Source: Syntrophaceae bacterium
GTDB lineage: Bacteria > Desulfobacterota > Syntrophia > Syntrophales > UBA5619
Direction: 5' to 3'
Assembly: GCA_003141195.1 (NCBI GenBank)
Contig: PLLC01000024.1
Location: 26,238 to 90,237, forward strand
DNA: 64,000 nt
Shown piece after piece: positions 9,830-50,823 of the stretch. The notes beneath the pieces are model-generated. The model had not been told where the DNA came from. It did not search any database and was given only the letters and a program-made list of their open reading frames with translations. Positions within the stretch are counted from its first letter, which is position 1, and every line of letters starts with the position of its first letter. Position numbers and translations under genes: made by a program.

Positions 9830-10840
9830 TCAATCCCGTTTTATTTTCACAAAGCGACCGCTCTTGATGGACTCCAGCGCGGCATAACCCATGGCCACCG
9901 AGATTTTTCCATCCAACCCACCGACGGAGGGAGTCTTGTTATCCATAACGCACGTGACAAACTCGCTCATCTCGGCAAGATATGCTTCCTGATATCGTTC
10001 CAGGAAGAAATGGAGAGGCTTGTCGCTTTGTATCGAGTCGGCATTGTGAATCGTGACCTCGGTCGGCGTCTTGTTCCCTACGGCAACCGAACCCCCGGAA
10101 CCAAAGATTTCGACTCTCTGATCATAGCCATAGACCGCCTGCCGGCTGTTGTCGATCGTCCCCAAAGCCCCGCTTTGAAATTTGAGCAGCACCACGGCGG
10201 TATCGACATCCCCGCACTGCCCGATTGCAGGATCGATCAGACAATGACCCGTCGCCATCAGCTCCGTGACCTCCTCGCCCAGGAGGAAGCGAGCCATGTC
10301 AAAGTCGTGAATCATCATATCCAAAAACAGTCCGCCCGAAATTTTGACATAGTCGAGCGGCGGGGGTTGCGGATCCCTGCTCGAGATCCGGAGCAACTGG
10401 GGAACGCCTATCTTTCCGGATTCAACCAGCCTCCTCGCCCTTTGAAAACCGGGATCAAAACGCCGATTGAAACCGACCTGCAGCTTCACTTCCGCTTTCC
10501 GAACCGCCGCCAGCGCCTCATCAATCTTGTCCATTTCCAGCGCGATCGGCTTTTCACAGAAAATATGCTTTCCGGCCATCGCCGCCTCAATCATGATCCG
10601 GGCATGGGTATCCGTAGAGGAACAGATCACCACGGCCTGAATGTCGTCATTCACAAGCAGGCGGCGATAATCTGTTTCGCAGACGGGGATTTCCAGTTCG
10701 TCGGCAACCTTTTGCGCGGACTCTGCGACGACATCCGCGACCGCCAGTAATTTTGCACCGGGGATTTGAAATTTTAAATTCCGGGCATGGATCCGGCCGA
10801 TCCTCCCTGTCCCGATGACCGCAATATTGACTCTTTTCAT
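9830..10840 (-). CDS. iolG: Gfo/Idh/MocA oxidoreductase, myo-inositol 2-dehydrogenase-like
   Basis: 336 aa with AGAGGAG RBS. N-terminal VNIAVIGTGRIGRIHARNL Rossmann fold, EKP motif (FCEKPIAL), overall IolG-like layout. Confidence 0.7.
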   Translation of the reverse strand: MKRVNIAVIGTGRIGRIHARNLKFQIPGAKLLAVADVVAESAQKVADELEIPVCETDYRRLLVNDDIQAVVICSSTDTHARIMIEAAMAGKHIFCEKPIALEMDKIDEALAAVRKAEVKLQVGFNRRFDPGFQRARRLVESGKIGVPQLLRISSRDPQPPPLDYVKISGGLFLDMMIHDFDMARFLLGEEVTELMATGHCLIDPAIGQCGDVDTAVVLLKFQSGALGTIDNSRQAVYGYDQRVEIFGSGGSVAVGNKTPTEVTIHNADSIQSDKPLHFFLERYQEAYLAEMSEFVTCVMDNKTPSVGGLDGKISVAMGYAALESIKSGRFVKIKRD

Positions 10841-10896
10841 TACTCGCTCCTCTTTTCTCGTCTACATCATTCCGTCCGCTCGGTCAAGCCTTCGAG

Positions 10897-10936
10897 ACGG
10901 TATGCTGTTACGACGTCCAGGCATACCGTTTTTTTT
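10897..10936 (+). terminator. intrinsic-terminator-like hairpin oriented on the plus strand (9-bp stem ACGGTATGC/GCATACCGT followed by T8)
   Basis: Left arm 10897-10905, right arm 10921-10929, T run through 10936. Sits between two minus-strand genes, so the U-tract is on the non-coding orientation. Confidence 0.5.
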
Positions 10937-10942
10937 CGCTGT

Positions 10943-12046
10943 CTATGTAGGAAGAATATGAATCCGCTCCGGGTTGATCCGGAAGGAAACGTCCTTATTG
11001 TTCAGTTCTTCATTACCCGGATCGAAGATATCTACAATAAATTCCATTCCGAGCGATTCTATCCAATAGCGGACGCTCGATCCCTCGAAAATCGAATTGA
11101 CCACTCTTCCCCGAAAAACATTCTCCCCATTCCCCTGACCGCGCAAGGCGCTTTCAAGACGAATGGTTTCCGGTCGAACGCAGAGGGTTATATCGTCGCC
11201 GGGCTTGTAGGTCCTCTCCGCTTCTTTATCAGCGGGCACGACCAGCACCGGTTCCCCTCCGACCGAAACAAGGATGGTTCTCGATGAAGAGCTCGCAACC
11301 TTGCCCTTCATGAGGTTCACGATGCCGACAAAGGACGCGACAAAGGTATTTCTTGGACGATAATAGATCTCGAAAGGGGACCCATATTGAACGATTTTTC
11401 CCTCGTTCATGACCGCGATCCGGTCGGACAACGACAGCGCCTCGGCTTGGTCGTGAGTGACGTAGATTGTCGTAATCTTCAGCCGCCTTTGGAGCTGTCT
11501 TAGCTCAGCCCGAATATTTATTCTGAGCTTTGCATCGAGATTCGAGAGCGGTTCGTCGAGAAGAAGGATTTCGGGTTCCATGACGAGCGCCCGCGCGAGC
11601 GCGACCCGCTGCTGTTGACCGCCGCTGATCTGACCGGGAGTGCGATCGAGAAGAGCTTCAATCCCAAGATATCCAATCGTTTTTTGAAGCCTTTTTTCGA
11701 TATCCTCCCGCGTCATCTTCTGGATTCGGAGTCCGTAGGTGATATTTTCCCGAATCGTCATATGGGGAAACAGGGCATAGTCCTGAAAGACCATAACGGC
11801 GTTCCGGAGGTGGGAGGGAACATCGTTGATCAACCTGTCTCCCATGTAAAGATTCCCGTGCTCCACTTCATAGAACCCCGCGATCATTCTCAGCAGGGTC
11901 GTTTTTCCGCATCCCGATGGTCCAAGAAAGGTCGTAAAACTTCCCCGCGCAATATCGAGCGACACCGAATCGAGGGCCTTCGTTTTTCCGAAGGTTTTAT
12001 GGACATTTTCAATTCTCAAATGTATTTCATTCATGGCCATAGACAT
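10943..12046 (-). CDS. ABC transporter ATP-binding protein (importer 1)
   Basis: 367 aa. Walker A GPSGCGKTT, signature LSGGQQQRVALARAL, Walker B LLLDEPLSNLD, C-terminal TOBE-like domain. Alternative starts at 12040 and 12034. Confidence 0.9.
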   Translation of the reverse strand: MSMAMNEIHLRIENVHKTFGKTKALDSVSLDIARGSFTTFLGPSGCGKTTLLRMIAGFYEVEHGNLYMGDRLINDVPSHLRNAVMVFQDYALFPHMTIRENITYGLRIQKMTREDIEKRLQKTIGYLGIEALLDRTPGQISGGQQQRVALARALVMEPEILLLDEPLSNLDAKLRINIRAELRQLQRRLKITTIYVTHDQAEALSLSDRIAVMNEGKIVQYGSPFEIYYRPRNTFVASFVGIVNLMKGKVASSSSRTILVSVGGEPVLVVPADKEAERTYKPGDDITLCVRPETIRLESALRGQGNGENVFRGRVVNSIFEGSSVRYWIESLGMEFIVDIFDPGNEELNNKDVSFRINPERIHILPT

Positions 12047-12055
12047 CCTTCGAGA

Positions 12056-13666
12056 CTAGACCTTAAAGAGTTCGAACCTTTTTCCAAGCGCGAGTTTCGC
12101 GATTCCCAAAACCAGAAAAGCAATGATAAGAAGCGAACAGGTCAACGCGGCCGCCTTTCCATAGAAACCGTCGCTCACGAGATTCATGATGCTGAAGGTG
12201 GCTACGACATTCTTGGAAGTCGCAAGGAATACGATGACGCTCAAGGTCGTGATCGCCCGGATGAAAGAGACGATAAACGCGGAAAAGAAGGGCCCTTTGA
12301 TGAGAGGGATCTCGATTTCCTTGAAGATCCTCATGCTGCTTGCACCGAGATTACTTGCGGCCTCATGGAACGACGGGGAGATTTGCTGGAACGCGCCGAT
12401 TCCCGTTTGATATCCCATCGCGATATTCCAGAACATCAGACTCAAAATGATGATCGCGGCAGTGCCGTGCAAGTCGACCGGAGGGCGCGTAAAGGCTATG
12501 GAATACCCGATTCCGAGAAATATCCCCGGCAGAGCGGTGGGAAGGATGCATGTAAAGTCCACGAATCGTCGCAGGAAAAATTTCTTTCGCGAGACGAGGT
12601 ATGCGGCGACCATGGAAAACAGTGCGCTGCCACCCCCCGCGAGGAGCGAAAAGACGAGACTGTTTGTGACCTCCGTGGACCTCGAAAAGATTTCCCGGAC
12701 ATAGCGCAGGGTAGGAGTCCAGTCGAATCCCCATCCATTGACGAAGGCGCCCATGAACAGCGCAAGATACACGAGAAGGATGAGCAGTGAAAACACGGAG
12801 CAGAAAGCGAACAAGAACCATCTCATAAAGCTGCCTATTCTCCGGATATCGATCTGCGTGCTCTTCCCTGTAATCGTCACGTAGGACTTTTTCCCGACCC
12901 AGAGGCGCTGGAAAAGAAAGATGGAAAAGGAAGGGACCAAGAGAACAAGCGATAAGATGGCGGCGCCGGAGACGTCGGCCCATCCCTCGATCCTCATCCA
13001 TGCCTCCGTCGCGACCACCGAGAAATCGCCGGAAATCATAATCGGGTTCCCGAAATCGGCCAAGACCTGAATCGAAACAAGAAGGGCCGCCCCGGCGACT
13101 CCCGGCCGGGCAAGAGGAAAGGTGATCGTTTTGAAAAGGGTAAATCCCGTCGCTCCAAGGTTCCTCCCGGCATATTCGAGGCTCGGCGGAATCGATTGCA
13201 GGACCCCTTCCATCATAAGGGCCGCGATGGGAAAGAAGGCTATCGTCTGAGCAAGCCAGAGGCCGTGCCACCCAAAAATGTTGACGGACAACCCCAGCAG
13301 CTTCGCCGTGATGATTCCATTTTTCCCAAACATCATGATGTAGCTGAAAGCCACCATGAACGGAGGGGAGAACAGGGGAAGGAGGCTGATCAGCTTGAAA
13401 TATTTTCTCAGCGGAACATCCGTCCTGGCGATGGTATACGCAAAAACGAAACCGACGAAAGCGGAGGAGCTCGTCGACAAGACGACCATGAACAGGCTGT
13501 TGAAAATCGCTTTGATGTACCGGGGGTGCGAAAGGACGGTGATCAATTCTTTCCCGCTTGGATACAGGAAAACCCTGACAATCGGGTAGATGACGAATAG
13601 AAAGAGACACGAGATGATAAAGAGCATCACAACAGCAAGAAAGGGTTCCTTCGCAATGCGCTTCAT
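12056..13666 (-). CDS. ABC transporter permease, fused two-domain (FbpB/ThiP-like), importer 1
   Basis: 536 aa, about 12 hydrophobic segments, two BPD-transport (EAA-loop) repeats (LEYAGRNLGATGF..., FHEAASNLGASSMRIF...). Confidence 0.85.
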   Translation of the reverse strand: MKRIAKEPFLAVVMLFIISCLFLFVIYPIVRVFLYPSGKELITVLSHPRYIKAIFNSLFMVVLSTSSSAFVGFVFAYTIARTDVPLRKYFKLISLLPLFSPPFMVAFSYIMMFGKNGIITAKLLGLSVNIFGWHGLWLAQTIAFFPIAALMMEGVLQSIPPSLEYAGRNLGATGFTLFKTITFPLARPGVAGAALLVSIQVLADFGNPIMISGDFSVVATEAWMRIEGWADVSGAAILSLVLLVPSFSIFLFQRLWVGKKSYVTITGKSTQIDIRRIGSFMRWFLFAFCSVFSLLILLVYLALFMGAFVNGWGFDWTPTLRYVREIFSRSTEVTNSLVFSLLAGGGSALFSMVAAYLVSRKKFFLRRFVDFTCILPTALPGIFLGIGYSIAFTRPPVDLHGTAAIIILSLMFWNIAMGYQTGIGAFQQISPSFHEAASNLGASSMRIFKEIEIPLIKGPFFSAFIVSFIRAITTLSVIVFLATSKNVVATFSIMNLVSDGFYGKAAALTCSLLIIAFLVLGIAKLALGKRFELFKV

Positions 13667-25883: not shown

Positions 25884-26534
25884 ATGAGCCGCCGAGAAGA
25901 ACTGCTGAAGATGTATGAACTGTTGAATGGGTATTTCGGTGATCTTCAATGGTGGCCCGCCGACGACCCCTTCGAGATCATGGTCGGGGCGATCCTGACC
26001 CAGAATACCGCCTGGACAAACGTCGAAAAGGCGATTCAAGCGCTGCGGGAGAGCCGGCTTCTCACTCCCGCGGCGCTTTCCTCTATACCGGAAGATGAAC
26101 TGGCCCGGATCATCCGACCGTCCGGTTATTATCATCTCAAGGCGGGAAGGCTGAAGGCTTTTGTCCGGTTTATGATGATGGAGTATTCCGGAAATGTCGA
26201 GACCATGAAGGTCGAGGACCTATCGCGGCTCCGCGATAAACTTCTCGGCGTAAAAGGCATTGGACCGGAAACCGCCGACAGCATCCTCCTTTACGCGTGT
26301 CAGAAGCCCGTCTTCATCAGTGATGCCTACACAAGGCGGATCCTTCTCCGCCACGGTATGATCGGAAATGATGCCGACTATCACTCAATCCAAGCGCTGT
26401 TCATGGATCATCTGCAGCCGGATGTCGCTCTCTTCAACCGGTATCACGCCCTGATCGTAAATACCGGCAAGACCTTCTGCCGGGGGACGGCGGAATGCGC
26501 GGCCTGTCCGCTTGCAATTTTGCAGGCAGGATAG
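25884..26534 (+). CDS. endonuclease III-related HhH-GPD domain protein
   Basis: 216 aa. ILTQNTAWTNVEKAI, helix-hairpin-helix LLGVKGIGPETADSILLY, C-terminal Cys cluster C..GTAECAACP. Confidence 0.75.
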   Translation: MSRREELLKMYELLNGYFGDLQWWPADDPFEIMVGAILTQNTAWTNVEKAIQALRESRLLTPAALSSIPEDELARIIRPSGYYHLKAGRLKAFVRFMMMEYSGNVETMKVEDLSRLRDKLLGVKGIGPETADSILLYACQKPVFISDAYTRRILLRHGMIGNDADYHSIQALFMDHLQPDVALFNRYHALIVNTGKTFCRGTAECAACPLAILQAG

Positions 26535-39705: not shown

Positions 39706-41975
39706 CCATCTGAAAAAACCGGCCGCAGGGCAGGAACGGCGCCGGAAGACCAACGAAGCGGAGCTCCTGCTCGACATCTCCAAGACGATCGCGGCGTTCG
39801 AGACCCTCGACGAGATCCTCAAATCCCTGGTGGAGATCACGACGAGGGAACTGAAGGCCGACCGGGGGACCATCTTCCTCAACGACAGCGAAACGGGCGA
39901 GCTTTACTCCCGCGTCGCCCAAGGAAATTTCCAGCGCGAGATCCGGATTCTGAACAATTCCGGCGTCGCCGGTCACGTCTTCACCACCGGGGAGGGGCTC
40001 ATCGTCCACAGCGCCTACGACGACCCCCACTTCAACCGCACCATCGATGAACAGACCGGTTATGTCACCAAAACGATCCTCTGCGTCCCCATCCGGACGA
40101 TCAAGGGGGAGAGCATCGGCGTTGCCCAGGCCCTGAACAAGAAGACGGGCCCGTTTCACGCCGGCCGACCGGCGCCTTCTGGAGGCGATGACGACGCAGG
40201 CCACGATCGCCCTGCAGAGCACGCAGTTCGTCGAGCGGATGAAACAATTCCGCCGGAAGGAAATGGAGTTCTTCAATGTCGTCTCCGATGTGACCGCCGA
40301 AATCGACCTGGGCGCCCTCCTCCAGAAGGTGATGTCCGAGGCGACAAGAATGCTGAATGCCGAGCGGGCAACCCTCTTTCTCAACGACGAAAAGACGAAC
40401 GAACTCTTCTCCAAGGTCGGCCTGGGACTGGCGGCGACGGAGATCCGCCTACCGAACCATCTCGGAATCGCGGGGGCGGTCTTCACCTCCCGGCAGACGG
40501 TGAACATTCCCTACGCTTACGCTGATCTGCGCTTCAACCCCGCCTTCGATAAAAAAACGGGGTTCTTCACCCGCTCCATCCTCTGCGTCCCGGTCATCAA
40601 CAAGGTCGGGAAGATTATCGGGGTAACCCAGGTATTGAACAAGCGGGGCGGCCCCTTCACCGCGGAGGACGAATCGCGGCTGAAGGCCTTCACCGCGCAG
40701 GTGTCGATCGCCCTGGAGAACGCCAAGCTCTTCGATGACGTCCAGAACATGAAGAACTACAGCGAGAGCATGTTGGAGAGCATGTCAAACGGCGTGATCA
40801 CCCTGAACGAGGATGAGAGGATCGTCACCTGCAATGCCGCCGGCCTACGGATCCTCCAGCTTGCCCCCGAGGCGATTCTCAAACGGAAGGCCGAGGATTT
40901 CTTCACCGGCGCCAACGCCTGGATCATCGAAAAGATCCGGCACGTCGAGGGAAGCGGCAAGCCGGACGTCATCATGGACGCAGAGGCGGAATTCGGAGGA
41001 ATCCGGATTTCCGTGAACCTGACGCTCCTCCCGCTCGTCAGCACCGCGAAGAAGAAGCTCGGCTCGATGATCATCATCGACGACATCACGAGCGAAAAGC
41101 GGATGAAATCGACCATGTCCCGCTACATGGATCCGGGGCTGGCCGATCAGATCCTCGAAGGCGGTGAAGAGGTTCTGGGCGGGAAGAGCACCGTGGCGAC
41201 GGTTCTCTTTTCGGACATCCGGGGGTTCACCACACTGACCGAGGAATTGGGTCCGCAAGGAACGGTCTCCCTGTTGAACGAGTATTTTACGATCATGGTG
41301 GACGGCATCCAGAAGGAGGGGGGGATGCTGGACAAGTTCATCGGGGACGCCATCATGGCCGCCTTTGGGGTGCCCATCCCTCATGAAGACGACGAGGACC
41401 GGGCCGTCCGGGCGGCGATCGGCATGATCCGTGCCCTGCATGTCTGGAACCGGCAGCGCGCGATCGAGGGGAAGAAACCGGTCGGGATGGGCATCGGCCT
41501 CAACACGGACACGATCGTCTCCGGAAACATCGGGTCGCCGAAGCGGATGGACTACACCCTGATCGGCGACGGCGTGAACCTTGCCTCCCGCCTGGAGAGC
41601 CTCTGCAAACATTACCATGCAAGCATCCTGATCAGCGAAAACACCGTCCGGCGCCTGAAGGGAACCTACCGGATCCGCGAGGTGGATCGGGTGCAGGTCA
41701 AGGGAAAGACACAGAGCGTCGAGGTCTATGAGGTCCTCGACTATTACACCGAAGAGACCTACCCCAACCTGATGGAGGTGGTGAACCACTTCCGGGACGG
41801 CCTGGCCCTATACCGCCGGAGGGAGTGGGACCGGGCGATTTCCAGATTCGACGAGGCCCTCCGCCTGAATCCGAACGAGAAGCTTTGCGGGATGTACGTT
41901 GAGCGTTGCGTCTGCTTCCGGGAGGAGCCTCCCGGCGACGACTGGGACGGCGGCTGGATCATGAAAACGAAGTAA
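39692..41975 (+). pseudogene. GAF-GAF-PAS class III adenylate cyclase, interrupted by a 1-nt frameshift near 40154-40157
   Basis: Track shows two overlapping ORFs (39692-40525 and 40188-41975). Frame 1 ends GAF1 at ...AQALNKKTGPF. The +1 frame continues TPADRRLLEAMTTQATIALQ, exactly parallel to the GAF2 end NKRGGPFTAEDESRLKAFTAQVSIALE. Cyclase motifs VLFSDIRGFT, KFIGDAIMA, GDGVNLASRLE. Confidence 0.75.
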
Positions 41976-42522: not shown

Positions 42523-43551
42523 CTATTTCTGACAGATCGGGCAGAGCCACGTTCCCCGCCCGCCCTGGTTGATTCGTTCAATGCTGCCGCCGCAGCGTCG
42601 GCAGGGCGCCCCCTGCCGCGAGTACACCTCGAGATGGTCCTGATTCGTTCCGCTGCAACCGAAAAGATCCCGCCAGTCGGAGACCGTCGTGCCGCGGCAG
42701 GCCACGGCCCGGCGGAAAATCGCCGCGGCCGCCTTCGCCACCTTCCGCCATTCCGCCGTCGCCAGACTGCACGCAGGCCGACGGGGGTCGATCCCCGCAG
42801 CGAAGAGGATCTCGCAGGCGTAGATGTTGCCGATCCCGGCGATGAGCCTCTGATCCATGAGAAAAGACTTCACCGGACGCCGCCGCGTCCGGGCGATCTC
42901 CCGGAGACGCTGCGCCGGAAGACCCTCCATGGGATCATCCGGAAGCGCTGGGGTGATCTCTTCCGGCTGCACGGCGAAGGTCGCGAAACGGCGCGGATCG
43001 ATCAACACCAGCGTTCCGGAGGAAAAGCCGATCACCAAGCGGCTGTAAGGAAAAAAGGGGGGACGGCGCCCGACTTTTTTAGCAAGGGGGGATGGCGCCC
43101 CTGTCTTCCGAACCCTGGTTTCCGGGAGAGATAAGGGTAGGGTTTCACCTTTCAGCGACACGCAATCCTTCCGCCTACGGGCACGAGGAGGAGGAAGTAT
43201 ATCGCCTTCCCGGCGGCCGTTGGAGGGCGGTGGCACATTGGCCGCCAGATAGAGAAGTCGGCCGGACATCCGGAGGTGGAGCGCCGCCGTCAGGCCGCCA
43301 TCCATTTGAATATGAATGTATTTTCCCCTGCGCGTCACCGCCGCGACACGCCGCCCAACCAGCCCCGCGACCTTCCCCGGGCCGGAGTCATCCGGAACGG
43401 CGGATTCTGGGAAAATGATGGCGCTGTCTCCCCTTTTTCGCTCGATATTCCCCAGGCGTGGATCCAGAACTTCGATCCGGAGGATTCTCTCGCCCGGAAG
43501 GACGGTGTTCAACTGGCGGCAGAGGGTCTCGACCTCGGGAAGTTCCGGCAT
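42523..43551 (-). CDS. mutM: formamidopyrimidine-DNA glycosylase (Fpg/MutM) with two Arg/Pro-rich insertions
   Basis: Canonical N-terminus MPELPEVE at ATG 43551 (track ORF to 43662). H2TH region MDQRLIAGIGNIYACEILF. C-terminal zinc finger CRRCGG...CPICQ. About 342 aa versus ~270 in E. coli. Confidence 0.85.
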   Translation of the reverse strand: MPELPEVETLCRQLNTVLPGERILRIEVLDPRLGNIERKRGDSAIIFPESAVPDDSGPGKVAGLVGRRVAAVTRRGKYIHIQMDGGLTAALHLRMSGRLLYLAANVPPPSNGRREGDILPPPRARRRKDCVSLKGETLPLSLPETRVRKTGAPSPLAKKVGRRPPFFPYSRLVIGFSSGTLVLIDPRRFATFAVQPEEITPALPDDPMEGLPAQRLREIARTRRRPVKSFLMDQRLIAGIGNIYACEILFAAGIDPRRPACSLATAEWRKVAKAAAAIFRRAVACRGTTVSDWRDLFGCSGTNQDHLEVYSRQGAPCRRCGGSIERINQGGRGTWLCPICQK

Positions 43552-43995
43552 CGTGCATCCTTCACTCGGCAGAACGGTGTTCAAATGGATATGAGAAATC
43601 GGGAGCTGCCCCCCCTTTTTCTGTCTGTTTTGTGATTCTAATCGATGGCACAAACATGTCAAGGGGAAAAGGGATGGGAAATAAATCGGAAGCGTTGGTT
43701 CTCTATTGTCGTCAACAGGAATAAGAAGTTCCGTATTAACTTTCTTAATATGTTACGATATGTTATATATCATTTCTATTCGCAGTCTGCGCGTCAGGAA
43801 GACATTTCCGCCGAAACAGGAACAGTATGTTCCTATGACGACGAGGCGAGTTCGTACAACATGCTGAAATAACGGCATGTTGTGCCAACGGCACGGATCT
43901 TCCAATACATGTCGGTATCGTTTGTCCGGCGGGCGGATTCAAGGCGGTTTGGCTGCGGGAAACCGGAGACGGACAAACGGCAAGGACGATGCGAC

Positions 43996-44244
43996 ATGGC
44001 TCTTCCCAGGAAAAAAACAGTCACCCTGACGGGGATCGTCATCCCGGCGGACTGGAACGACCGCCAGGAGGTGGTCGCCGCGGCCCTCGCCACGGCGGAC
44101 GAAAAGGAGTACCGGATCGCCGGAAATAAAAAAGGAAAAGAGCTGCTGGATGCGCTTCAGCGCCAGGTCGAGGCGACCGGCGCGCTGGAGCGGGATGAAA
44201 AAGGCAGGAACGTTATCACGATCAAACACTATATCGTCAAGTAA
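43996..44244 (+). CDS. small hypothetical protein (82 aa)
   Basis: ATG 43996 (MALPRKKTVTLTGIVIPADW...), inside track ORF 43882-44244. Preceded by a highly structured leader. No recognisable family. Confidence 0.4.
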   Translation: MALPRKKTVTLTGIVIPADWNDRQEVVAAALATADEKEYRIAGNKKGKELLDALQRQVEATGALERDEKGRNVITIKHYIVK

Positions 44245-44399
44245 ACAGAAGGTTTACGGCAATGAAGCCCCGTCAAAATTATTTATTGACAGGCCATTTC
44301 AAAAAGAGTAAAGCCTCAGCGAAAATGAACTGGGATGATCGCATCGTGACATTTGCATATAAAATACAGAGATCCCGGCAGCAATGACGATTTCTAACC

Positions 44400-44426
44400 A
44401 AAAGAGAGGTCTTGTCCTCTCTTTTT
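44400..44426 (+). terminator. intrinsic terminator/attenuator hairpin (10-bp stem plus T-tract) 30 nt upstream of kamA
   Basis: AAAAGAGAGG (44400-44409), loop tcttgt, CCTCTCTTTT (44416-44425), then T. The kamA RBS AGGAGG follows at 44443-44448. Confidence 0.65.
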
Positions 44427-44456
44427 GAGCATTCAGAAGACAGGAGGCATAAACAG

Positions 44457-45761
44457 ATGGAAAGTGAAGCACTTTTTGCTGAGGAGGCTGAACCTCCAGG
44501 TAGTAGGACCGGCAACGGTCTGCAACCCTACGATGGACATGTTGGCACGTCCATGAACGTTCTCTACACCCCCGCCGCGGTTCCGGCCAGGCCGGCGCCA
44601 ATGCTGCCCGCTTTCAGCGACAGCCGGGCGAGGGCCTTCCGGAAGCGTTTTTTCCCGAACACCACCCTCAAGGAATGGAACGACTGGCACTGGCAGCTTC
44701 GCAACCGCATCCGCGACGCGGAGACATTGGGGAGGATGATCCGCCTGTCGGAGGATGAGCTCCACGCCATGATCGGCGCGGCGGGCTCCCTCCCGCTCGC
44801 GATCACCCCTTACTACATGAGCCTGATCGATCCGTGGAACTCGCGTCAGGCCCTGCGCCGGACGGTCGTGCCCACCGTGCATGAGCATTTCCGCAGCAGC
44901 GGCGAGGCGGACGACCCGCTCCACGAGGATGAGGACAGCCCGGTTCCCGGGATCGTCCACCGCTATCCGGACCGCGTTTTGTTTCTGGTGACGGGGATTT
45001 GCTCGACCTACTGCCGATACTGCACCCGGTCGCGGATGGTCGGGCACCACGGCAATCAATGCCTCAACACTGAACAGTGGGAAAAGGGAATCGCGTACAT
45101 CGCAGCGCACCCGGAGGTGCGGGACGTCCTTCTCTCCGGCGGCGATCCGCTGACCATGGCCGACGAACAATTGGAGTGGCTGCTCGCGCATCTGCGTCGG
45201 ATCCCCCACGTGGAGCTGGTCCGGATCGGCACGAAGGCGCCGGTCGTTCTCCCACAGCGGATCACACCTGCCCTGGTCAGGATGCTCCGGCGCTATCATC
45301 CCCTCTGGATCAGCATCCACACGGCCCATCCGGACGAATTGACCCCGGATGTCGCCCGGGCGTGCACGCGCCTCGCCGACGCGGGAATCCCGCTCGGGAG
45401 CCAGACGGTCCTGCTTTCCGGAATCAACGACAACGTGGAGACGATGAAGCGCCTCGTCCACGGCCTGCTGAAGATCCGGGTCAAGCCCTACTACCTCTAC
45501 CAGTGCGACCCGATCCCCGGGTCTTCCCATTTCCGGACCCCGGTCTCGAAGGGGCTGGAGGTAATCCGGGGCCTGCGGGGATTCACCACCGGCTATGCGG
45601 TACCGACCTACGTCATCGACGCCCCCGGCGGCGGCGGGAAGATCCCGCTCCTTCCGGAATACGTCGAGGGACGCGAGGAGGGCGACCTGCTCCTGCGCAA
45701 CTACGAGGGGAAGGTCTTCCGCTATCCGGACTGTCCATCGACGGAAGGCGTCATCCACTGA
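44457..45761 (+). CDS. kamA: lysine 2,3-aminomutase (KamA/AblA-type radical SAM, PLP-dependent)
   Basis: ATG 44457 with AGGAGG 8 nt upstream (track start 44412 lies inside the terminator). CSTYCRYCTR radical SAM motif. Strong collinearity with clostridial LAM (EDSPVPGIVHRYPDRVLFL..., RVKPYYLYQCD, YVIDAPGGGGK). Confidence 0.85.
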   Translation: MESEALFAEEAEPPGSRTGNGLQPYDGHVGTSMNVLYTPAAVPARPAPMLPAFSDSRARAFRKRFFPNTTLKEWNDWHWQLRNRIRDAETLGRMIRLSEDELHAMIGAAGSLPLAITPYYMSLIDPWNSRQALRRTVVPTVHEHFRSSGEADDPLHEDEDSPVPGIVHRYPDRVLFLVTGICSTYCRYCTRSRMVGHHGNQCLNTEQWEKGIAYIAAHPEVRDVLLSGGDPLTMADEQLEWLLAHLRRIPHVELVRIGTKAPVVLPQRITPALVRMLRRYHPLWISIHTAHPDELTPDVARACTRLADAGIPLGSQTVLLSGINDNVETMKRLVHGLLKIRVKPYYLYQCDPIPGSSHFRTPVSKGLEVIRGLRGFTTGYAVPTYVIDAPGGGGKIPLLPEYVEGREEGDLLLRNYEGKVFRYPDCPSTEGVIH

Positions 45762-45818
45762 AATCCCGCGCCCCCGTTCCCCTTGCCGGGAGCGGAGGGC
45801 GCGGATTCCGGGTTATCG

Positions 45819-45840
45819 TTCCCACGTTGGAGCGTGGGAA
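45819..45840. repeat. REP-like 8-bp hairpin TTCCCACG-ttggag-CGTGGGAA
   Basis: In the 91-nt spacer between kamA and the first ATP-grasp gene. Same TTCC..C/G..GGAA architecture as the hairpins at 6496-6558. Confidence 0.75.
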
Positions 45841-45852
45841 TAAGGAATCAAT

Positions 45853-46836
45853 GTGAAGATCGGCATCACATACGACCTCCGGGATGATTATATCGCCGAA
45901 AGCTACACGGAGGAAGAGACTGCGGAGTTCGACCACCCGCGGACGATCGCTGCGATCGAGGAGGCCCTGCAATCGCTAGGTTACGAGACGGATCGGATCG
46001 GCCATATCCGGGCGCTGGCCCGGCGGCTCGTCGCGGGCGAGCGGTGGGACCTCGTCTTCAACATCGCCGAGGGGCTCCGGGGTTTCGGCCGCGAGGCACA
46101 GGTCCCGGCCCTCCTGGACGCCTGGGAAATCCCCTACACCTTTTCCGATCCGCTGGTGCTTTCGCTCACCCTGCACAAGGGGATGACCAAACGGGTGATC
46201 CGCGACCTCGGAATCCCGACGCCGGATTTCGCCGTCGTCGAGACGCCGGAGGAGATTGCAGCCGTGGCGCTCCCCTTTCCGCTCTTCGCCAAGCCGGTTG
46301 CGGAGGGAACGGGGAAGGGGGTCACCGCGGCCTCGAAGATCGAGGACCGGACGGAACTCGCGCGCATCTGCCGGGAATTGTTAGCAACTTTTTTTCAGCC
46401 CGTCCTGATCGAGACCTTTCTCCCGGGCAGGGAATTCACCGTCGGGATCATCGGGACCGGCACGGAGGCGTTCGTCCCCGGGGTGATGGAGGTTCATCTC
46501 ACGGAAAAGGCGGAGAAAGAGGTCTATTCCTACGCGAACAAGGAAGACTGGCACGGGCGGATCGAGTATCGTCTTGCCGCGGACGCAATGGCCCTGGCGG
46601 CGGAGAAAACGGCGCTGGCGGCCTGGCGCGGTCTCGGTTGTCGCGACGGGGGGAGGATCGACCTGCGCGCCGACGCAAACGGGGTGCCGAATTTCATCGA
46701 GGTGAACCCCCTGGCGGGGCTCCGACCCGAACACTCGGATCTGCCGATCCTCTGCGAGCTCGCCGGCATGCCCTACCGGGAGCTGATCGCCGGGATCATG
46801 CGCTCCGCCCTGAAACACATCGGAAACGGATCATGA
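45853..46836 (+). CDS. D-alanine--D-alanine ligase-like ATP-grasp enzyme (1)
   Basis: 327 aa, GTG start with AAGGAA RBS. ATP-grasp features FPLFAKPVAEGTGKGV, PGREFTVGIIG, RIDLR....VPNFIEVNPLAGL. Confidence 0.8.
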   Translation: MKIGITYDLRDDYIAESYTEEETAEFDHPRTIAAIEEALQSLGYETDRIGHIRALARRLVAGERWDLVFNIAEGLRGFGREAQVPALLDAWEIPYTFSDPLVLSLTLHKGMTKRVIRDLGIPTPDFAVVETPEEIAAVALPFPLFAKPVAEGTGKGVTAASKIEDRTELARICRELLATFFQPVLIETFLPGREFTVGIIGTGTEAFVPGVMEVHLTEKAEKEVYSYANKEDWHGRIEYRLAADAMALAAEKTALAAWRGLGCRDGGRIDLRADANGVPNFIEVNPLAGLRPEHSDLPILCELAGMPYRELIAGIMRSALKHIGNGS

Positions 46837-46846
46837 AAATATACGA

Positions 46847-46962
46847 CTTCGGAAAAGCTCCATATGCGGCGTTGTGCTTCCTCCTTCGTCGTTGCGGCGT
46901 ACATCAAAGTACGCCGCACTCCTCAGGGGTCGTGCGCCTTGCCTCTGGAGCTTTTTGCGAAG
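46847..46962. repeat. nested inverted-repeat element (outer ~16-bp stem, inner perfect 9-bp hairpin) between the two ATP-grasp genes
   Basis: Outer arms CTTCGGAAAAGCTCCA (46847-46862) and TGGAGCTTTTTGCGAAG (46946-46962), with a 1-nt bulge. Inner GCGGCGTAC (46894-46902) and GTACGCCGC (46909-46917). Confidence 0.75.
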
Positions 46963-47005
46963 CCGTCCCGGATGCAAAGCCTTACCGGTTTATGACGGGT
47001 TCATC

Positions 47006-48019
47006 ATGAAAATTGCCGTCATCCACGGAGAGGTGGCCGCAGGGGCAGGCCGGGACGAACGGGATGTCCTCACGCAGGTCGATTTCGTCTCCCGGGGACT
47101 TGTCGCCCTGGGCCATGAGCCCGTTGTCGTTCCTGCCTCCCTGAACCTCGAAGCGGTCGCGCAGACGCTTACGGATCTGCAGCCCGAGATGGTCTTCAAT
47201 CTCGTGGAGACGCTCGCCGGAAAGGGGAGTCTGATCCACATCGTTCCTTCCCTTCTCGACGCTCTGAAGATCCCTTACACCGGCGCGGGGACGGAGGCGA
47301 TGCTCCTCACGTCGAACAAACTCCTCGCGAAGCGTTGGCTCTCCGCCGCCGGTCTCCCGACGCCGGCGTGGTTCACGACCGCGGAAACGCATGAGGAATT
47401 GCGCGTGGAAGGGGCGTGGCTTGTCAAGTCGGCCTGGGAGCATGCCTCCATCGGCCTCGACGAGGATTCTGTCCTCTTCGGGGCGGACCGGAAGCGGCTC
47501 CTCGCGGAGATGGACGTCCGTAGGAACTCACTGGGCGGGGCCTGTCTGGCCGAGGCCTACATCGACGGCCGGGAATTGAACCTCTCGCTCCTCACGGGCG
47601 AGGGCGGGCCGGAGGTGCTCCCCCCAGCAGAGATTCGCTTCGATGCCTACCCGCCGGGGAAGGTCCGCGTCGTCGGCTACCGCTCGAAATGGGAGGAGGG
47701 GACGTTCGAATTCGCGAACACCCCCCGGATCTTCGAGTTTCCGGCGCAAGATGCCCCTCTCATCGCGAAACTGAAAGACCTTGCCCTCCGGTGCTGGAAT
47801 CTCTTCGATCTGCGGGGATACGCCCGGGTCGATTTCCGCGTGGACAGAGCGGGACGGCCCTGGATCCTCGAGGTGAACACGAACCCCTGTCTCTCGCCGG
47901 ACGCGGGCTTCTCCGCGGCGACCCTTCGCGCGGGCCTGACGTTCCCGGACGTCCTTTGCCGCATCATCAACAAGAGGGAACAGCTCCCGATGATCACCGT
48001 TCATCCTGTGGAGAAATAA
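47006..48019 (+). CDS. D-alanine--D-alanine ligase-like ATP-grasp enzyme (2)
   Basis: True start MKIAVIHGEV at ATG 47006 (track ORF from 46874 runs through the repeat element). ATP-grasp motifs WLVKSAWEHASIG, DGRELNLSLL, RVDFR...GRPWILEVNTNPCLS. Confidence 0.8.
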   Translation: MKIAVIHGEVAAGAGRDERDVLTQVDFVSRGLVALGHEPVVVPASLNLEAVAQTLTDLQPEMVFNLVETLAGKGSLIHIVPSLLDALKIPYTGAGTEAMLLTSNKLLAKRWLSAAGLPTPAWFTTAETHEELRVEGAWLVKSAWEHASIGLDEDSVLFGADRKRLLAEMDVRRNSLGGACLAEAYIDGRELNLSLLTGEGGPEVLPPAEIRFDAYPPGKVRVVGYRSKWEEGTFEFANTPRIFEFPAQDAPLIAKLKDLALRCWNLFDLRGYARVDFRVDRAGRPWILEVNTNPCLSPDAGFSAATLRAGLTFPDVLCRIINKREQLPMITVHPVEK

Positions 48020-48160
48020 CGGTCATGGTGGGGGCCCTGACAGGTTAAACGCGACATGATCCAACAAGGTCAAAAGGTTACAATACAGGCGCTTTGCACA
48101 GGGTGGAGAAATCCCCGTCCCGGCGAAGATCCTGTTCCAATCAACGAGGTGATAAGTAAC

Positions 48161-48508
48161 GTGCTGAAACCGCTTATATTGTTAACATTTTCAAACCTCT
48201 TCATGACGTTTGCGTGGTACGGCCACCTGAAGAACATGAACGGGAAGCCCCTGTTCCTGATCATCCTCCTGAGCTGGGGGATTGCCTTTTTCGAATACGT
48301 TCTCCAGGTGCCCGCGAACCGGATCGGTATCCATTATTTCAACCTGGGCCAATTGAAGGTCATCCAGGAGATCATTACGATGACCGTCTTTGCCGGCTTC
48401 GCCTTCTTCTTCATGAGGCAGCCCTTGAAACTGAATTACCTCTGGGCGGGATTCTGCCTCATCGGCGCGGCCTATTTCATGTTCCGGGGAGGCATACCCC
48501 ATGCCTGA
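48161..48508 (+). CDS. DUF486 / small DMT-superfamily membrane protein
   Basis: GTG 48161 with AGGTGA upstream (track ORF from 48056). LLTFSNLFMTFAWYGHLK is the family N-terminal signature. Four hydrophobic helices, 115 aa. Confidence 0.7.
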   Translation: MLKPLILLTFSNLFMTFAWYGHLKNMNGKPLFLIILLSWGIAFFEYVLQVPANRIGIHYFNLGQLKVIQEIITMTVFAGFAFFFMRQPLKLNYLWAGFCLIGAAYFMFRGGIPHA

Positions 48509-49025
48509 AAAAAATCGGGAGAGGTTCCCCCTTTTCATCACACACCGCGAGGATGTTCGGCCGGAGGACCGGCAGGCGGTCGGCCAACTCGTCCGCGCGA
48601 CGGGGTTCTTCTCGGAGGAGGAGGCGAACATTGCCGTGGAGCTCGTCGAGGAGCGGCTGGCCAAGGGCGATGCGAGCGGCTACTTCTTCCTCCTTGCCGA
48701 AGAGGGAAATCGTCTGCTCGGCTACACCTGCTTCGGCCCGATACCCGGCAGCGTTCACAGCTTCGACCTCTACTGGATCGCCGTGGATCCCGGGGAGCAG
48801 GGACGGGGGGTCGGACGGACGCTCATGGCCGCCGCGGAGCGGATCATGGCCGGGTGCGGGGCGCGCCGGCTTTACGCGGACACCTCTTCCCTCCCCCAGT
48901 ACGAGCCGACCCGCGCCTTCTACCTCGCCTGCGGCTACCTTGAGGAGGCCTTCCTGACCGACTTCTACGCCCCGGGAGACGGCAAGGTGATCTTCGTAAA
49001 GACCCTTCCCGCCTGCGCGCCCTGA
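48501..49025 (+). CDS. GNAT-family N-acetyltransferase
   Basis: 174 aa with GGGGAGG RBS. Start overlaps the DUF486 gene end by 8 nt. Acetyl-CoA motif VDPGEQGRGVGRTLM. Confidence 0.85.
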   Translation: MPEKNRERFPLFITHREDVRPEDRQAVGQLVRATGFFSEEEANIAVELVEERLAKGDASGYFFLLAEEGNRLLGYTCFGPIPGSVHSFDLYWIAVDPGEQGRGVGRTLMAAAERIMAGCGARRLYADTSSLPQYEPTRAFYLACGYLEEAFLTDFYAPGDGKVIFVKTLPACAP

Positions 49026-49155
49026 GGATCCGCATGAATATTCTTGCTTCCTTCCATACCAACTGGTAATAAATACCATTACCTTTGCTCATGCGAGATA
49101 GGATACCGCCCCCTGCTCCGGGTAACGGAGAGACCCTTCAAAAGGAGGCGGGGGT

Positions 49156-49181
49156 GCCGCTTGGATGCGGCTTTGCTTTTT
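49156..49181 (+). terminator. weak intrinsic terminator after the GNAT gene
   Basis: GCCGC-ttggat-GCGGC (49156-49171) followed by the T-rich tract TTTGCTTTTT. Confidence 0.35.
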
Positions 49182-49217
49182 GTATTGCACGACGATGAGG
49201 GAGGAGAGATCGGCGCC

Positions 49218-49838
49218 ATGAGATTCATTCCGAAGGAAGAAAAATTCTTCGACCTTTTTGAGGAGCTCGTCGGCCGGATCGAGGCCGGGGGGAAACTATT
49301 TTTGGAGATGGTGGAAAACGGCGCCTACAGCGAGGCGCAGGCTGCCCGCCTCAAGGAAATCGAGCACGAGGCAGACATCATCACCCACCAGACCTACGAG
49401 AAGATGCACACCACCTTCCTCACCCCGCTCGACCGCGAGGATATCTGCAACCTCGTCAATAAGATGGACAGCATCCTCGACATGACGGAGGCGGCCGCTG
49501 CCCGGATCATCCTCTACCGGGTGAAGGAGCCGTCGCCGACGATCGTCGATCAAGCCCGGGTCCTCAACGAGACGATCGTCAAGCTGAAGACAATCATCCA
49601 CGGCCTTCGGGACATGAAGCACGCCTCGATGATCCTCCAGACCTGCGTCGAGATCCACACCCTGGAAAACGCCGGGGATGTGATCCTGCGCACAACGATG
49701 GCCCATCTCTTCGAGAACGAACCGGACGTCCGCGAACTGATCAAGTGGAAAGAGATCCACGAGAGGATCGAAGAGGCGATCGATGTCTGCGAGGACGTCT
49801 CCAACATTGTGGAGGGGATCGTCCTGAAAAATGGCTGA
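49218..49838 (+). CDS. DUF47 (PhoU-like, TIGR00153) phosphate-transport accessory protein
   Basis: ATG 49218 with GAGGGAGGAGAG upstream (track ORF from 49044). MRFIPKEEKFFDLFEE... is typical. Overlaps the downstream PiT gene by 8 nt. Confidence 0.8.
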   Translation: MRFIPKEEKFFDLFEELVGRIEAGGKLFLEMVENGAYSEAQAARLKEIEHEADIITHQTYEKMHTTFLTPLDREDICNLVNKMDSILDMTEAAAARIILYRVKEPSPTIVDQARVLNETIVKLKTIIHGLRDMKHASMILQTCVEIHTLENAGDVILRTTMAHLFENEPDVRELIKWKEIHERIEEAIDVCEDVSNIVEGIVLKNG

Positions 49839-50823
49839 TGCGCTTCTCGTCATCTTCCTCGTTCTGACGGCGCTGGCGTTTGACTTCATCAACGGCTTCC
49901 ACGACTCGGCGAACGCCATCTCGACCATCGTCTCGACGCGGGTCCTCTCCCCCCGCCAAGCGGTTCTCTGGGCGGCCTTCTTCAATTTCATCGCCCTCTT
50001 CCTCGTCGGCGTTCCTGTCGCGAAGACGATCGGCACCGGGATCATTCGTCCCGATATCATCAGCGATGCGGTGATCTTCGCGGCGCTCGGCGGGGCGATC
50101 GCCTGGAACCTGATCACCTGGTACTTCGGCCTGCCGAGCAGCTCCTCCCATGCCTTGATCGGCGGCCTGATGGGCGTCGGATTCGTGAAGGGGGGGATGA
50201 AGGTCCTTGTCCTCTCCGGGATCACGAAGACGGCGATCTTCATCGTCCTCTCGCCTGCAATCGGCATGGTGCTGGGACTCGTCTTCATGGTCACCGTCCT
50301 GAACCTTTGCCGGAACTCCACAGTCTATCGGGCGGACCGGATCTTCCGGAGACTCCAACTGCTTTCCTCCGCTGTCTTCAGCATGGGACACGGGATGAAC
50401 GACGCCCAGAAGACGATGGGAATCATCGCGATGGTCCTTTTCGGCCGGGGGATTTCGGGGCCGGTTTTCCACATCCCCCTTTGGGTGGAAATCGTCTGCT
50501 ACACGACGATTGCGATGGGAACGATGGCGGGTGGATGGCGGATCGTCAAGACGATGGGAACCAAAATCACGAAACTCCGGCCGATGGGGGGATTCTGTGC
50601 GGAGGCGGCGGCCGCCGGGGCAATCATCGGGGCGTCGCTGGCCGGCATCCCCGTGAGTACGACCCACACGATCACCGGCGCTATCGTCGGCGTCGGCGCA
50701 ACGCACCGCATCACCGCGGTGCGTTGGGGGTTGGCGGGAACCATTGTCTGGGGTTGGGTTCTGACGATTCCTCTCACGGCGCTCATCTCCGCCGCGATTT
50801 ACACCCTCCTGACAGTCTGGTAA
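49831..50823 (+). CDS. pit: inorganic phosphate transporter, PiT (PHO4) family
   Basis: 330 aa. FDFINGFHDSANAI and GHGMNDAQKTMGII PiT signature repeats. About 10 TM helices. Confidence 0.9.
   Translation: MADALLVIFLVLTALAFDFINGFHDSANAISTIVSTRVLSPRQAVLWAAFFNFIALFLVGVPVAKTIGTGIIRPDIISDAVIFAALGGAIAWNLITWYFGLPSSSSHALIGGLMGVGFVKGGMKVLVLSGITKTAIFIVLSPAIGMVLGLVFMVTVLNLCRNSTVYRADRIFRRLQLLSSAVFSMGHGMNDAQKTMGIIAMVLFGRGISGPVFHIPLWVEIVCYTTIAMGTMAGGWRIVKTMGTKITKLRPMGGFCAEAAAAGAIIGASLAGIPVSTTHTITGAIVGVGATHRITAVRWGLAGTIVWGWVLTIPLTALISAAIYTLLTVW

Follow-up and report, generated by a model that had tools for sequence, protein, structure and literature searches.

What does a lysine 2,3-aminomutase (LAM) do in one gene cluster with two ligases of the D-alanine–D-alanine ligase (Ddl) superfamily? 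This question was raised by a locus on contig PLLC01000024.1 of a Syntrophaceae bacterium (assembly GCA_003141195.1). In the window, which is the whole stretch of 64,000 nucleotides that was analysed (contig positions 26,238 to 90,237), five open reading frames (ORFs) follow one another on the + strand between 44.4 and 49.0 kb. They encode a short-form lysine 2,3-aminomutase (KamA/AblA-like, 44457–45761), two different Ddl-superfamily ATP-grasp ligases that are not Ddl (AG1, 45853–46836; AG2, 47006–48019), a small membrane protein of the DMT_6 (DUF486) family (48161–48508) and a small GNAT N-acetyltransferase of 174 aa (48501–49025), whose gene overlaps that of DMT_6 by 8 nt. An earlier note on this DNA had listed the same ORFs as a candidate pathway for an N-acylated beta-lysine peptide. 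Its coordinates, families and overlap were borne out by the ORF list and by Pfam and NCBIfam, which returned a KamA-family radical S-adenosylmethionine (SAM) protein, two Dala_Dala_lig_C ATP-grasp proteins, DMT_6/DUF486 and a GNAT. We put at about even the chance that this operon builds a small beta-lysine-derived amide or peptide, by means of KamA, the two ligases as a pair, acetylation by the GNAT and possibly transport by DMT_6.

That most of these genes belong together was seen from their distribution. An exhaustive HMMER search with AG1 gave 777 cluster representatives at E < 1e-30, and a scan for AG1-specific motifs, with one genome per species, confirmed at least 589 loci. The window proteins were mapped onto the best 80 of these at least 589 loci (57–91% identical to AG1); counts are over 81 loci, and each gene was counted only in loci with enough flank. 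It was found that KamA was directly upstream of AG1 in 72/76 loci, that AG2 was directly downstream of AG1 in 63/69, and that the GNAT was in place in 50/60. All four genes, KamA-AG1-AG2-GNAT, were present and collinear in 46 of 57 loci. Fused AG1-AG2 proteins were frequent among the AG1 representatives, one KamA-AG1 fusion was found, and on one metagenomic contig KamA was followed directly by a fused AG1-AG2 and then by a GNAT-HDAC gene. The cluster was observed in Thermodesulfobacteriota, Bacteroidota, Ignavibacteriales, Planctomycetota, Spirochaetota, Thermoanaerobaculia, WOR-3, Krumholzibacteriia and others, with AG1 remaining ∼60–65% identical across phyla; the carriers within Thermodesulfobacteriota were Syntrophales, Desulfocapsaceae and Desulfobacterales, among the last the completely sequenced Desulfosarcina variabilis (L071, NZ_CP159846). 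Because this gene order recurs in several phyla and is accompanied by fusions, the arrangement is far beyond chance and the four genes are functionally linked. Clustering of the ORFs of the 81 loci revealed no other widely shared neighbour and no conserved catabolic neighbours.

The earlier note had set conservation of the whole five-gene neighbourhood as a test in advance. This conservation held for KamA, AG1, AG2 and the GNAT, and failed for the DUF486 gene. The latter was found only in close relatives (L001, L002, L042, where it was partial, and L046), which amounted to 3/60 loci with enough flank, and the "five-gene set" was therefore wrong. The family assignment of the DMT_6 protein was clear (PF04342, E 1e-44), and it is a lineage-specific accessory, possibly a transporter.

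The window KamA could be aligned to the LAM of Clostridium subterminale (PDB 2A5H) at E 7e-139. In this alignment CSTYCRYC fell on C125/C129/C132, the radical-SAM triad, YQCD on D293, YVID on D330 and APGGGGK on K337, the lysine that binds pyridoxal phosphate (PLP), so that all the motifs picked out in the earlier note were in register with 2A5H; R134 was also kept. The radical-SAM cysteines, R134, D293, D330 and K337 were present in 71/71 cluster orthologues. The positions of D293 and D330 are occupied by Lys and Asn in glutamate 2,3-aminomutase, and the previous assignment of the enzyme as lysine-type was upheld by the two aspartates in every orthologue.

Subfamily membership was examined by hidden Markov model (HMM) scores. 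KamA scored 365.8 with the KamA subfamily model TIGR00238 (cut-off 199.2), and its best equivalog was AblA, whose cut-off it narrowly missed (TIGR03820, 487.7 vs 525.4). The glutamate 2,3-aminomutase model gave 427.6 vs 650, the arginine aminomutase model a score lower than that of AblA and far under its own cut-off, and the EpmB model, the weakest LAM subfamily, 259 vs 369. Unlike clostridial LAM, which has a Zn site (C268, C375, C377, C380) and a C-terminal oligomerisation region, the window KamA was without both: C268 was Asn, and never Cys among the 71 orthologues, and the tail after the PLP-binding lysine was 39 aa vs 79 aa in 2A5H, with the C-terminal Cys-rich region absent. Judged by these features, the aminomutase is a short-form, lysine-type 2,3-aminomutase. 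As the lysine-type residues R134, D293, D330 and K337 are kept, beta-lysine would be its expected product.

The two ligases were 31% identical to each other and each ∼27% identical to Escherichia coli DdlB, and for both the nearest relatives of solved structure were Ddl enzymes. With the Ddl model NF002378 they reached 139.3 (AG1) and 109.5 bits (AG2) vs a cut-off of 243. When the AG1 family profile was compared with the PDB, Ddl was the nearest solved structure (4e-42), followed by L-amino-acid ligase (3e-14), cyanophycin synthetase (∼2e-8, ATP-grasp core only) and, marginally, RimK (7e-6). For residue comparison, 77 AG1 and 61 AG2 orthologues were aligned with DdlB, whose numbering is used here; the DdlB reference sequence was verified only against published residue numbers, and each of the fifteen examined was occupied by the residue expected. 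The catalytic, ATP and Mg residues K97, K144, E180, E187, K215, R255, D257, E270 and N272 were invariant in the 77 AG1 orthologues, and the same nine residues were kept in nearly all 61 AG2 orthologues.

The residues of the D-Ala site, in contrast to this machinery, were replaced. AG1 had Thr for S150, Glu for Y216 and an invariant Ser-Asp for S281-L282, and AG2 had Ala for S150, an invariant Trp for Y216, Ala-Gly for S281-L282 and Cys for G276. Both ligases carried Arg in place of M259. E15 was Ala in AG1 and Asp in AG2, a call that is less secure because the alignment to DdlB is weak in the N-terminal (first-substrate) domain. Since the catalytic residues are kept and those of the D-Ala site are not, AG1 and AG2 have the appearance of active ligases that form amides, with specificities that are new and differ between the two, and the Glu (Y216) and Asp (L282) added in AG1 would suit a cationic substrate. 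These enzymes thus share the fold and the catalytic machinery of the Ddl/Van ligases but differ from them at E15, S150, Y216 and L282 and in their genomic context, which is an aminomutase and a GNAT rather than mur/fts genes. The earlier view that they are Ddl-like without being Ddl agreed with both the scores and the D-Ala-site changes. No true Ddl and no second KamA were found in the 64-kb window.

The GNAT was recognised by Acetyltransf_1 (PF00583, E 3.6e-16), and its stretch QGRGVG fits the acetyl-CoA loop motif (Q/R-x-x-G-x-G/A). Its only close relative with a structure was PDB 2R7H (E 4e-39), an uncharacterised structural-genomics deposit from Desulfovibrio alaskensis G20 that is annotated as a "putative D-alanine N-acetyltransferase". 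No AblB-named family was found among the NCBIfam matches even at E 10, and we classify the protein as 2R7H-type and not as AblB.

Further clues to the chemistry were found outside the window, in enzymes that had escaped the earlier note, namely an S58 peptidase and a deacetylase that is joined to GNAT domains. A protein with a GNAT-like N-terminal domain and an HDAC-fold domain (PF00850, 2e-76) was present in 11/81 loci, plus L082. It was located at 10022–12277 in Desulfosarcina (L071) and at 9996–12269 in L054, and occurred further in L012, L027, L031, L049, L059, L061, L076, L078, L080 and L082. In L071 and L054 it was fused to the operon's own C-terminal GNAT, giving a polypeptide of ∼750 aa; acetyltransferase and deacetylase share one polypeptide in these two loci. 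The HDAC domain was closest to acetylpolyamine amidohydrolases (APAHs; 6PHR, 3e-72), not to protein deacetylases, and this suggests as substrate a small molecule that bears an N-acetylated aminoalkyl chain. An epsilon-N-acetylated (beta-)lysine side chain matches such a chain.

In a WOR-3 variant, KamA-AG1 was followed by a convergent Peptidase_S58 gene (L013, 3260–5567; L064, 656–2784), and neither AG2 nor a GNAT was detected in these two loci; in L064 the peptidase gene lies at 1636–2784. Double AG1-like ligases fused in one protein form a sister family (∼680–700 aa, 33–42% identical to AG1), and in 3/3 loci examined they were likewise followed by Peptidase_S58 (L083, 2505–5310; L084, 322–3509; L085, 8001–11110, with the peptidase at 10004–11110), which looks like a separate, uncharacterised ligase–peptidase pair. 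In L083, genes for an NtrC-type sigma-54 activator and a histidine kinase were observed upstream of the fused ligase. The S58 peptidases DmpA and BapA are beta-aminopeptidases, which hydrolyse peptides with an N-terminal beta-amino acid, and carnosine synthase is an ATP-grasp enzyme that ligates a beta-amino acid (PMC9235088). The S58 neighbours and the APAH-like deacetylase together tie AG1-type ligases to peptides containing a beta-amino acid, and nothing else in the data says more about the chemistry than these accessory enzymes. A search of the 64-kb window itself found no APAH/HDAC and no S58 gene.

Gene content, residue conservation, co-conservation and fusions are direct observations, and from them the following pathway can be proposed. 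KamA would convert L-lysine to beta-lysine (3,6-diaminohexanoate). AG1 and AG2 would then act as a pair, each forming one amide bond via an acyl-phosphate; they might be a heterodimer, because Ddl enzymes are dimers and AG1 and AG2 are often fused. The ligases may join beta-lysine to one or two amino or carboxyl partners, one of which could be another (beta-)lysine. The GNAT would acetylate a free amine of the substrate or the product, most plausibly a lysine-type epsilon-amine. In some lineages the APAH-like enzyme would remove the acetyl group, and in some an enzyme of the S58 beta-aminopeptidase family would remove an N-terminal beta-amino acid. In the window organism, DMT_6 may move the compound across the membrane.

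The logic of this proposed pathway has parallels in several known systems. The synthesis of N-acetylglutaminylglutamine amide (NAGGN) by Ngg and AsnO and the mammalian pathway from N-acetylaspartate (NAA) to N-acetylaspartylglutamate (NAAG) also combine acetylation by a GNAT with a peptide bond made by an ATP-grasp enzyme. The likeness drawn to NAGGN in the earlier note is an analogy of logic only: here the GNAT is fused to neither ATP-grasp protein, the ligases belong to the Ddl branch and an enzyme forming a beta-amino acid is present, and no amidotransferase was found either in the cluster of the window or among the neighbours that are conserved between loci. Pyrrolysine synthesis proceeds from a radical-SAM lysine mutase (PylB) to ATP-grasp ligation to a lysine amine (PylC), but PylB is not a PLP-dependent aminomutase of the KamA family, and the cluster is without PylD and has two ligases and a GNAT. 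PylC was absent among the PDB matches listed for AG1 and AG2. Carnosine synthase (ATPGD1) with DmpA/BapA resembles the proposal in that an ATP-grasp enzyme handles a beta-amino acid and S58 genes recur by AG1-like ligases; the sequence context is unrelated, the window has no S58 gene, and beta-lysine would take the place of beta-alanine. The lysine fermentation operon (kamA-kamDE-kdd-kce-kal), with its beta-lysine 5,6-aminomutase and downstream catabolic genes, was not seen beside the cluster, whose neighbours are fpg, a small ORF, PhoU_div and Pit. The cluster is hybrid-like, with traits of AblA/AblB and of ATP-grasp N-acetyl-peptide pathways and with PylB/PylC logic, and is a member of none of them.

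Several points weigh against this proposal. A GNAT was not detectable in 10/60 loci, AG2 was missing from 6/69, and the Bacteroidota loci L031, L062 and L079 had no adjacent KamA; the four genes are therefore not obligatorily together. The taxonomic labels of metagenome-assembled genomes (MAGs) are only as reliable as the deposits. The aminomutase scored below the AblA cut-off, and the aspartates D293 and D330 prove a cationic side-chain pocket and not a preference for L-lysine over a close analogue. Besides the weak N-terminal alignment of the ligases, the substrate specificity of ATP-grasp proteins is not readable from sequence. The substrates, the order of the steps, the product and its physiological role are inferred.

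The alternative that survives best makes AG1/AG2 a template-free polymerase, with oligo- or poly-(beta-lysine) or an alternating copolymer as product, serving as a polycation or, like cyanophycin, as a nitrogen-rich reserve. Capping or neutralising the chain would be the task of the GNAT, and S58 peptidases and APAH-like amidohydrolases would mobilise the polymer where they are present. Two distinct ATP-grasp sites are often fused in one polypeptide here, as in two-site polymerases, and AG1-like ligases recur beside an exopeptidase family (S58) that trims N-terminal beta-residues. An epsilon-linked beta-lysine chain would consist of N-epsilon-acyl-lysine-type amides, the class of bond cut by HDAC/APAH enzymes, and NtrC-type sigma-54 activators and TGGCAC-N5-TTGC sites lie upstream in several Desulfobacterota loci. 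The resemblance to cyanophycin synthetase and cyanophycinase extends to ATP-grasp chemistry, template-free synthesis, two active sites and, in some lineages, a dedicated peptidase. However, the AG1 profile matches cyanophycin synthetase weakly (∼2e-8) and in the ATP-grasp core only, the cluster is without a Mur-ligase-type domain, no primer-binding or polymer-handling domain was found, the window is without an S58 or APAH gene, and the searchable literature has no report of polymer granules or of a polymer of beta-lysine in these organisms. On balance a polymer is rather unlikely. A more specific form of the idea is held with similarly low confidence: AG1/AG2 might be a heteromeric, template-free synthetase of a natural beta-peptide that is capped or tuned by acetylation and forms a widespread nitrogen-rich reserve or polycation of anaerobes, with the S58 and APAH-like enzymes beside related clusters as its dedicated degraders. 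If this were true, it would provide a physiological substrate for beta-aminopeptidases, which are not known to have one.

Modification of a protein or another macromolecule is decidedly less probable. In such a scheme an ATP-grasp enzyme would attach beta-lysine or a peptide tag to a carboxylate or a lysine, in the manner of RimK, LysX/LysW or the modification of EF-P by EpmA/EpmB, and lysine acetylation would have the GNAT as its writer and the HDAC-type enzymes as its eraser. LAM homologues, ATP-grasp ligases, GNATs and HDAC-type enzymes all include protein-modifying members; the aminomutase has a short, EpmB-like architecture, and a conserved ORF of 82 aa lies upstream in many Desulfobacterota loci. 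Against this, EpmB was the weakest LAM subfamily (259 bits vs 488 for AblA), the ligases were closest to Ddl and L-amino-acid ligase with RimK marginal (7e-6), and the deacetylase was closest to small-molecule acetylpolyamine amidohydrolases rather than to protein deacetylases. The 82-aa ORF is not core outside Thermodesulfobacteriota and has no acidic C-terminal tail. Furthermore, Syntrophus has a separate yjeK-efp cluster (PMC2821294). No epmA (genX/poxA) or efp was found adjoining the cluster in the window or the mapped loci, though no dedicated search for these two genes was made.

Among the closest known systems is the AblA/AblB pathway for N-epsilon-acetyl-beta-lysine of methanogens and some bacteria. 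Shared with it are a lysine 2,3-aminomutase and a GNAT in one operon, AblA as best equivalog and the lysine-binding residues. The cluster differs in that its GNAT comes from another family of far smaller proteins, a pair of ATP-grasp ligases is kept between aminomutase and GNAT, and the aminomutase is short, without the Zn and C-terminal region, and below the AblA cut-off. In Syntrophus, ablA clusters with ablB (PMC2821294). Plain synthesis of N-epsilon-acetyl-beta-lysine, with AG1 and AG2 as unrelated cell-wall Ddl paralogues in between, is highly improbable: it would explain why the genes for LAM and GNAT share an operon, as they do in ablAB, but the GNAT is of the 174-aa 2R7H type with no AblB match, the ligases are without the Ddl D-Ala-site residues and below the Ddl cut-offs, and their position between kamA and the GNAT is kept across phyla with fusions to each other and to KamA, so that chance intercalation of the ligases cannot explain the cluster.

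For the small beta-lysine-derived amide or peptide, candidate roles would be a compatible solute, a polyamine-like cation or a nitrogen-rich reserve. The carriers were mostly anaerobic bacteria, and according to the record titles many of the MAGs came from a freshwater lake, fens, peat and digesters. An osmolyte, which the earlier note had suggested in the form of an N-acetylated di- or tripeptide, is possible but not favoured by habitat, as the MAGs from freshwater lake, fen and peat do not speak for a salt-specific role. If the proposal is true, it would define a new class of beta-lysine-derived metabolites made by ATP-grasp chemistry independent of nonribosomal peptide synthetases. The GNAT 2R7H and a large clade that is misannotated as "D-alanine--D-alanine ligase family" would then each have a function, and for S58 beta-aminopeptidases as well as bacterial acetylpolyamine-amidohydrolase homologues there would be candidates for a natural substrate.

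In the searchable full-text literature no description of a cluster of LAM and ATP-grasp genes was found, although an earlier bioinformatic prediction may exist; the earlier note had known of no description of such a product. Of the matches that were returned, a Pelobacter paper dealt with the canonical ablAB, and a match for kamA and DUF486 concerned DUF4867 and was irrelevant. The enzyme families of the cluster are thus known ones, and what is undescribed is their widely conserved combination.

The transcription signals around the genes were then read from the sequence. A sigma-70-like promoter, TTGACA and TAAAGC separated by a 17-nt spacer, may lie at 44286–44314 (+). Both hexamers were kept in an alignment with four Syntrophales relatives, and a promoter consensus scan gave no call at this site. 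Between it and the start codon, in the kamA 5' leader, there is a terminator-like hairpin at 44401–44426 (+), AAAGAGAGG-N6-CCTCTCTTT followed by TT, which was kept in L001 and L003 and partly in L004 and L005. It formed a 10-pair stem in the minimum-free-energy fold, and the leader as a whole was no stabler than shuffled sequences (z -0.53). This hairpin may be an attenuator. A riboswitch was considered and rejected, since no Rfam family was found in 43500–49400 and the sole match was at chance level (E 0.95). After the GNAT gene, the terminator scan found a hairpin with a T-run at 49156–49181 (+), GCCGCTTGGATGCGGC and then TTTGCTTTTT, which is the probable operon end. The conserved promoter-like site upstream and the terminator-like site downstream are consistent with one operon.

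Sigma-54 control of the window operon was also rejected: matches to TGGCAC-N5-TTGC were at chance level, and none upstream of kamA was convincing. In several other Desulfobacterota loci, good TGGCAC-N5-TTGC sites and NtrC-type sigma-54 activators were found upstream of the operon, with the sites at 6169 in L010, 3977 in L026, 2613 in L057, 5869 in L071, 6049 in L077, 6516 in L018, and 5883 and 6193 in L054. NtrC-type sigma-54 regulation is often linked to nitrogen, and such a setting would fit nitrogen-linked control, though sigma-54 is not nitrogen-specific. In Desulfosarcina (L071), additional ORFs that lie between kamA and its sigma-54 site were discarded, as they had no family and no clean reading frame.

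The small ORF of 82 aa lies 5' of kamA at 43996–44244 (+) and is a possible associate, not a core member. Homologues were observed just upstream of kamA in ∼17 Thermodesulfobacteriota loci (for example L010, 6271–6492; L026, 4054–4257; L057, 2709–2915), often preceded by an NtrC-type sigma-54 activator and a TGGCAC-N5-TTGC site, which the window is without. No Pfam family was above cut-off for this ORF, and its interpretation as a LysW-like carrier was dropped in view of the missing acidic C-terminus and the confinement to Thermodesulfobacteriota.

As regards gene starts and spacers, the kamA ORF is open from TTG 44412, and its most likely start is ATG 44457. The latter was preferred because AGGAGG is located ∼8 nt upstream of it and because ATG 44457 is kept as start in relatives while TTG 44412 is not. 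The spacers between AG1 and AG2 (169 nt, 46837–47005) and between AG2 and DMT_6 (141 nt, 48020–48160) were not seen in the close relatives L001 and L002, in which AG1/AG2 and AG2/DMT_6 abut or overlap. The AG1–AG2 spacer contains a hairpin with a perfect 9-bp stem, GCGGCGTAC-N6-GTACGCCGC, at 46894–46917 (+).

The cluster is flanked upstream by the divergent fpg gene and the 82-aa ORF, and downstream by a pair encoding PhoU_div (DUF47) and a Pit phosphate transporter, directly adjoining at 49236–50823. The same pair was also beside L003, L005, L008, L016, L029, L033, L036, L041, L042, L046 and L055, i.e. 11 Syntrophales/Smithella loci and no other phylum, and the adjacency probably reflects lineage synteny, not function. 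The Fpg/MutM gene (42523–43551, –) encodes 342 aa vs ∼265 aa in relatives. Its N-terminal Fapy_DNA_glyco domain spans residues 1–191 for a profile of 117 positions, so that an insertion of ∼75 aa is present. Further upstream, at 40188–41975, a GAF-PAS-adenylate/guanylate cyclase protein with a C-terminal TPR was observed, which overlaps a long alternative ORF in another frame.

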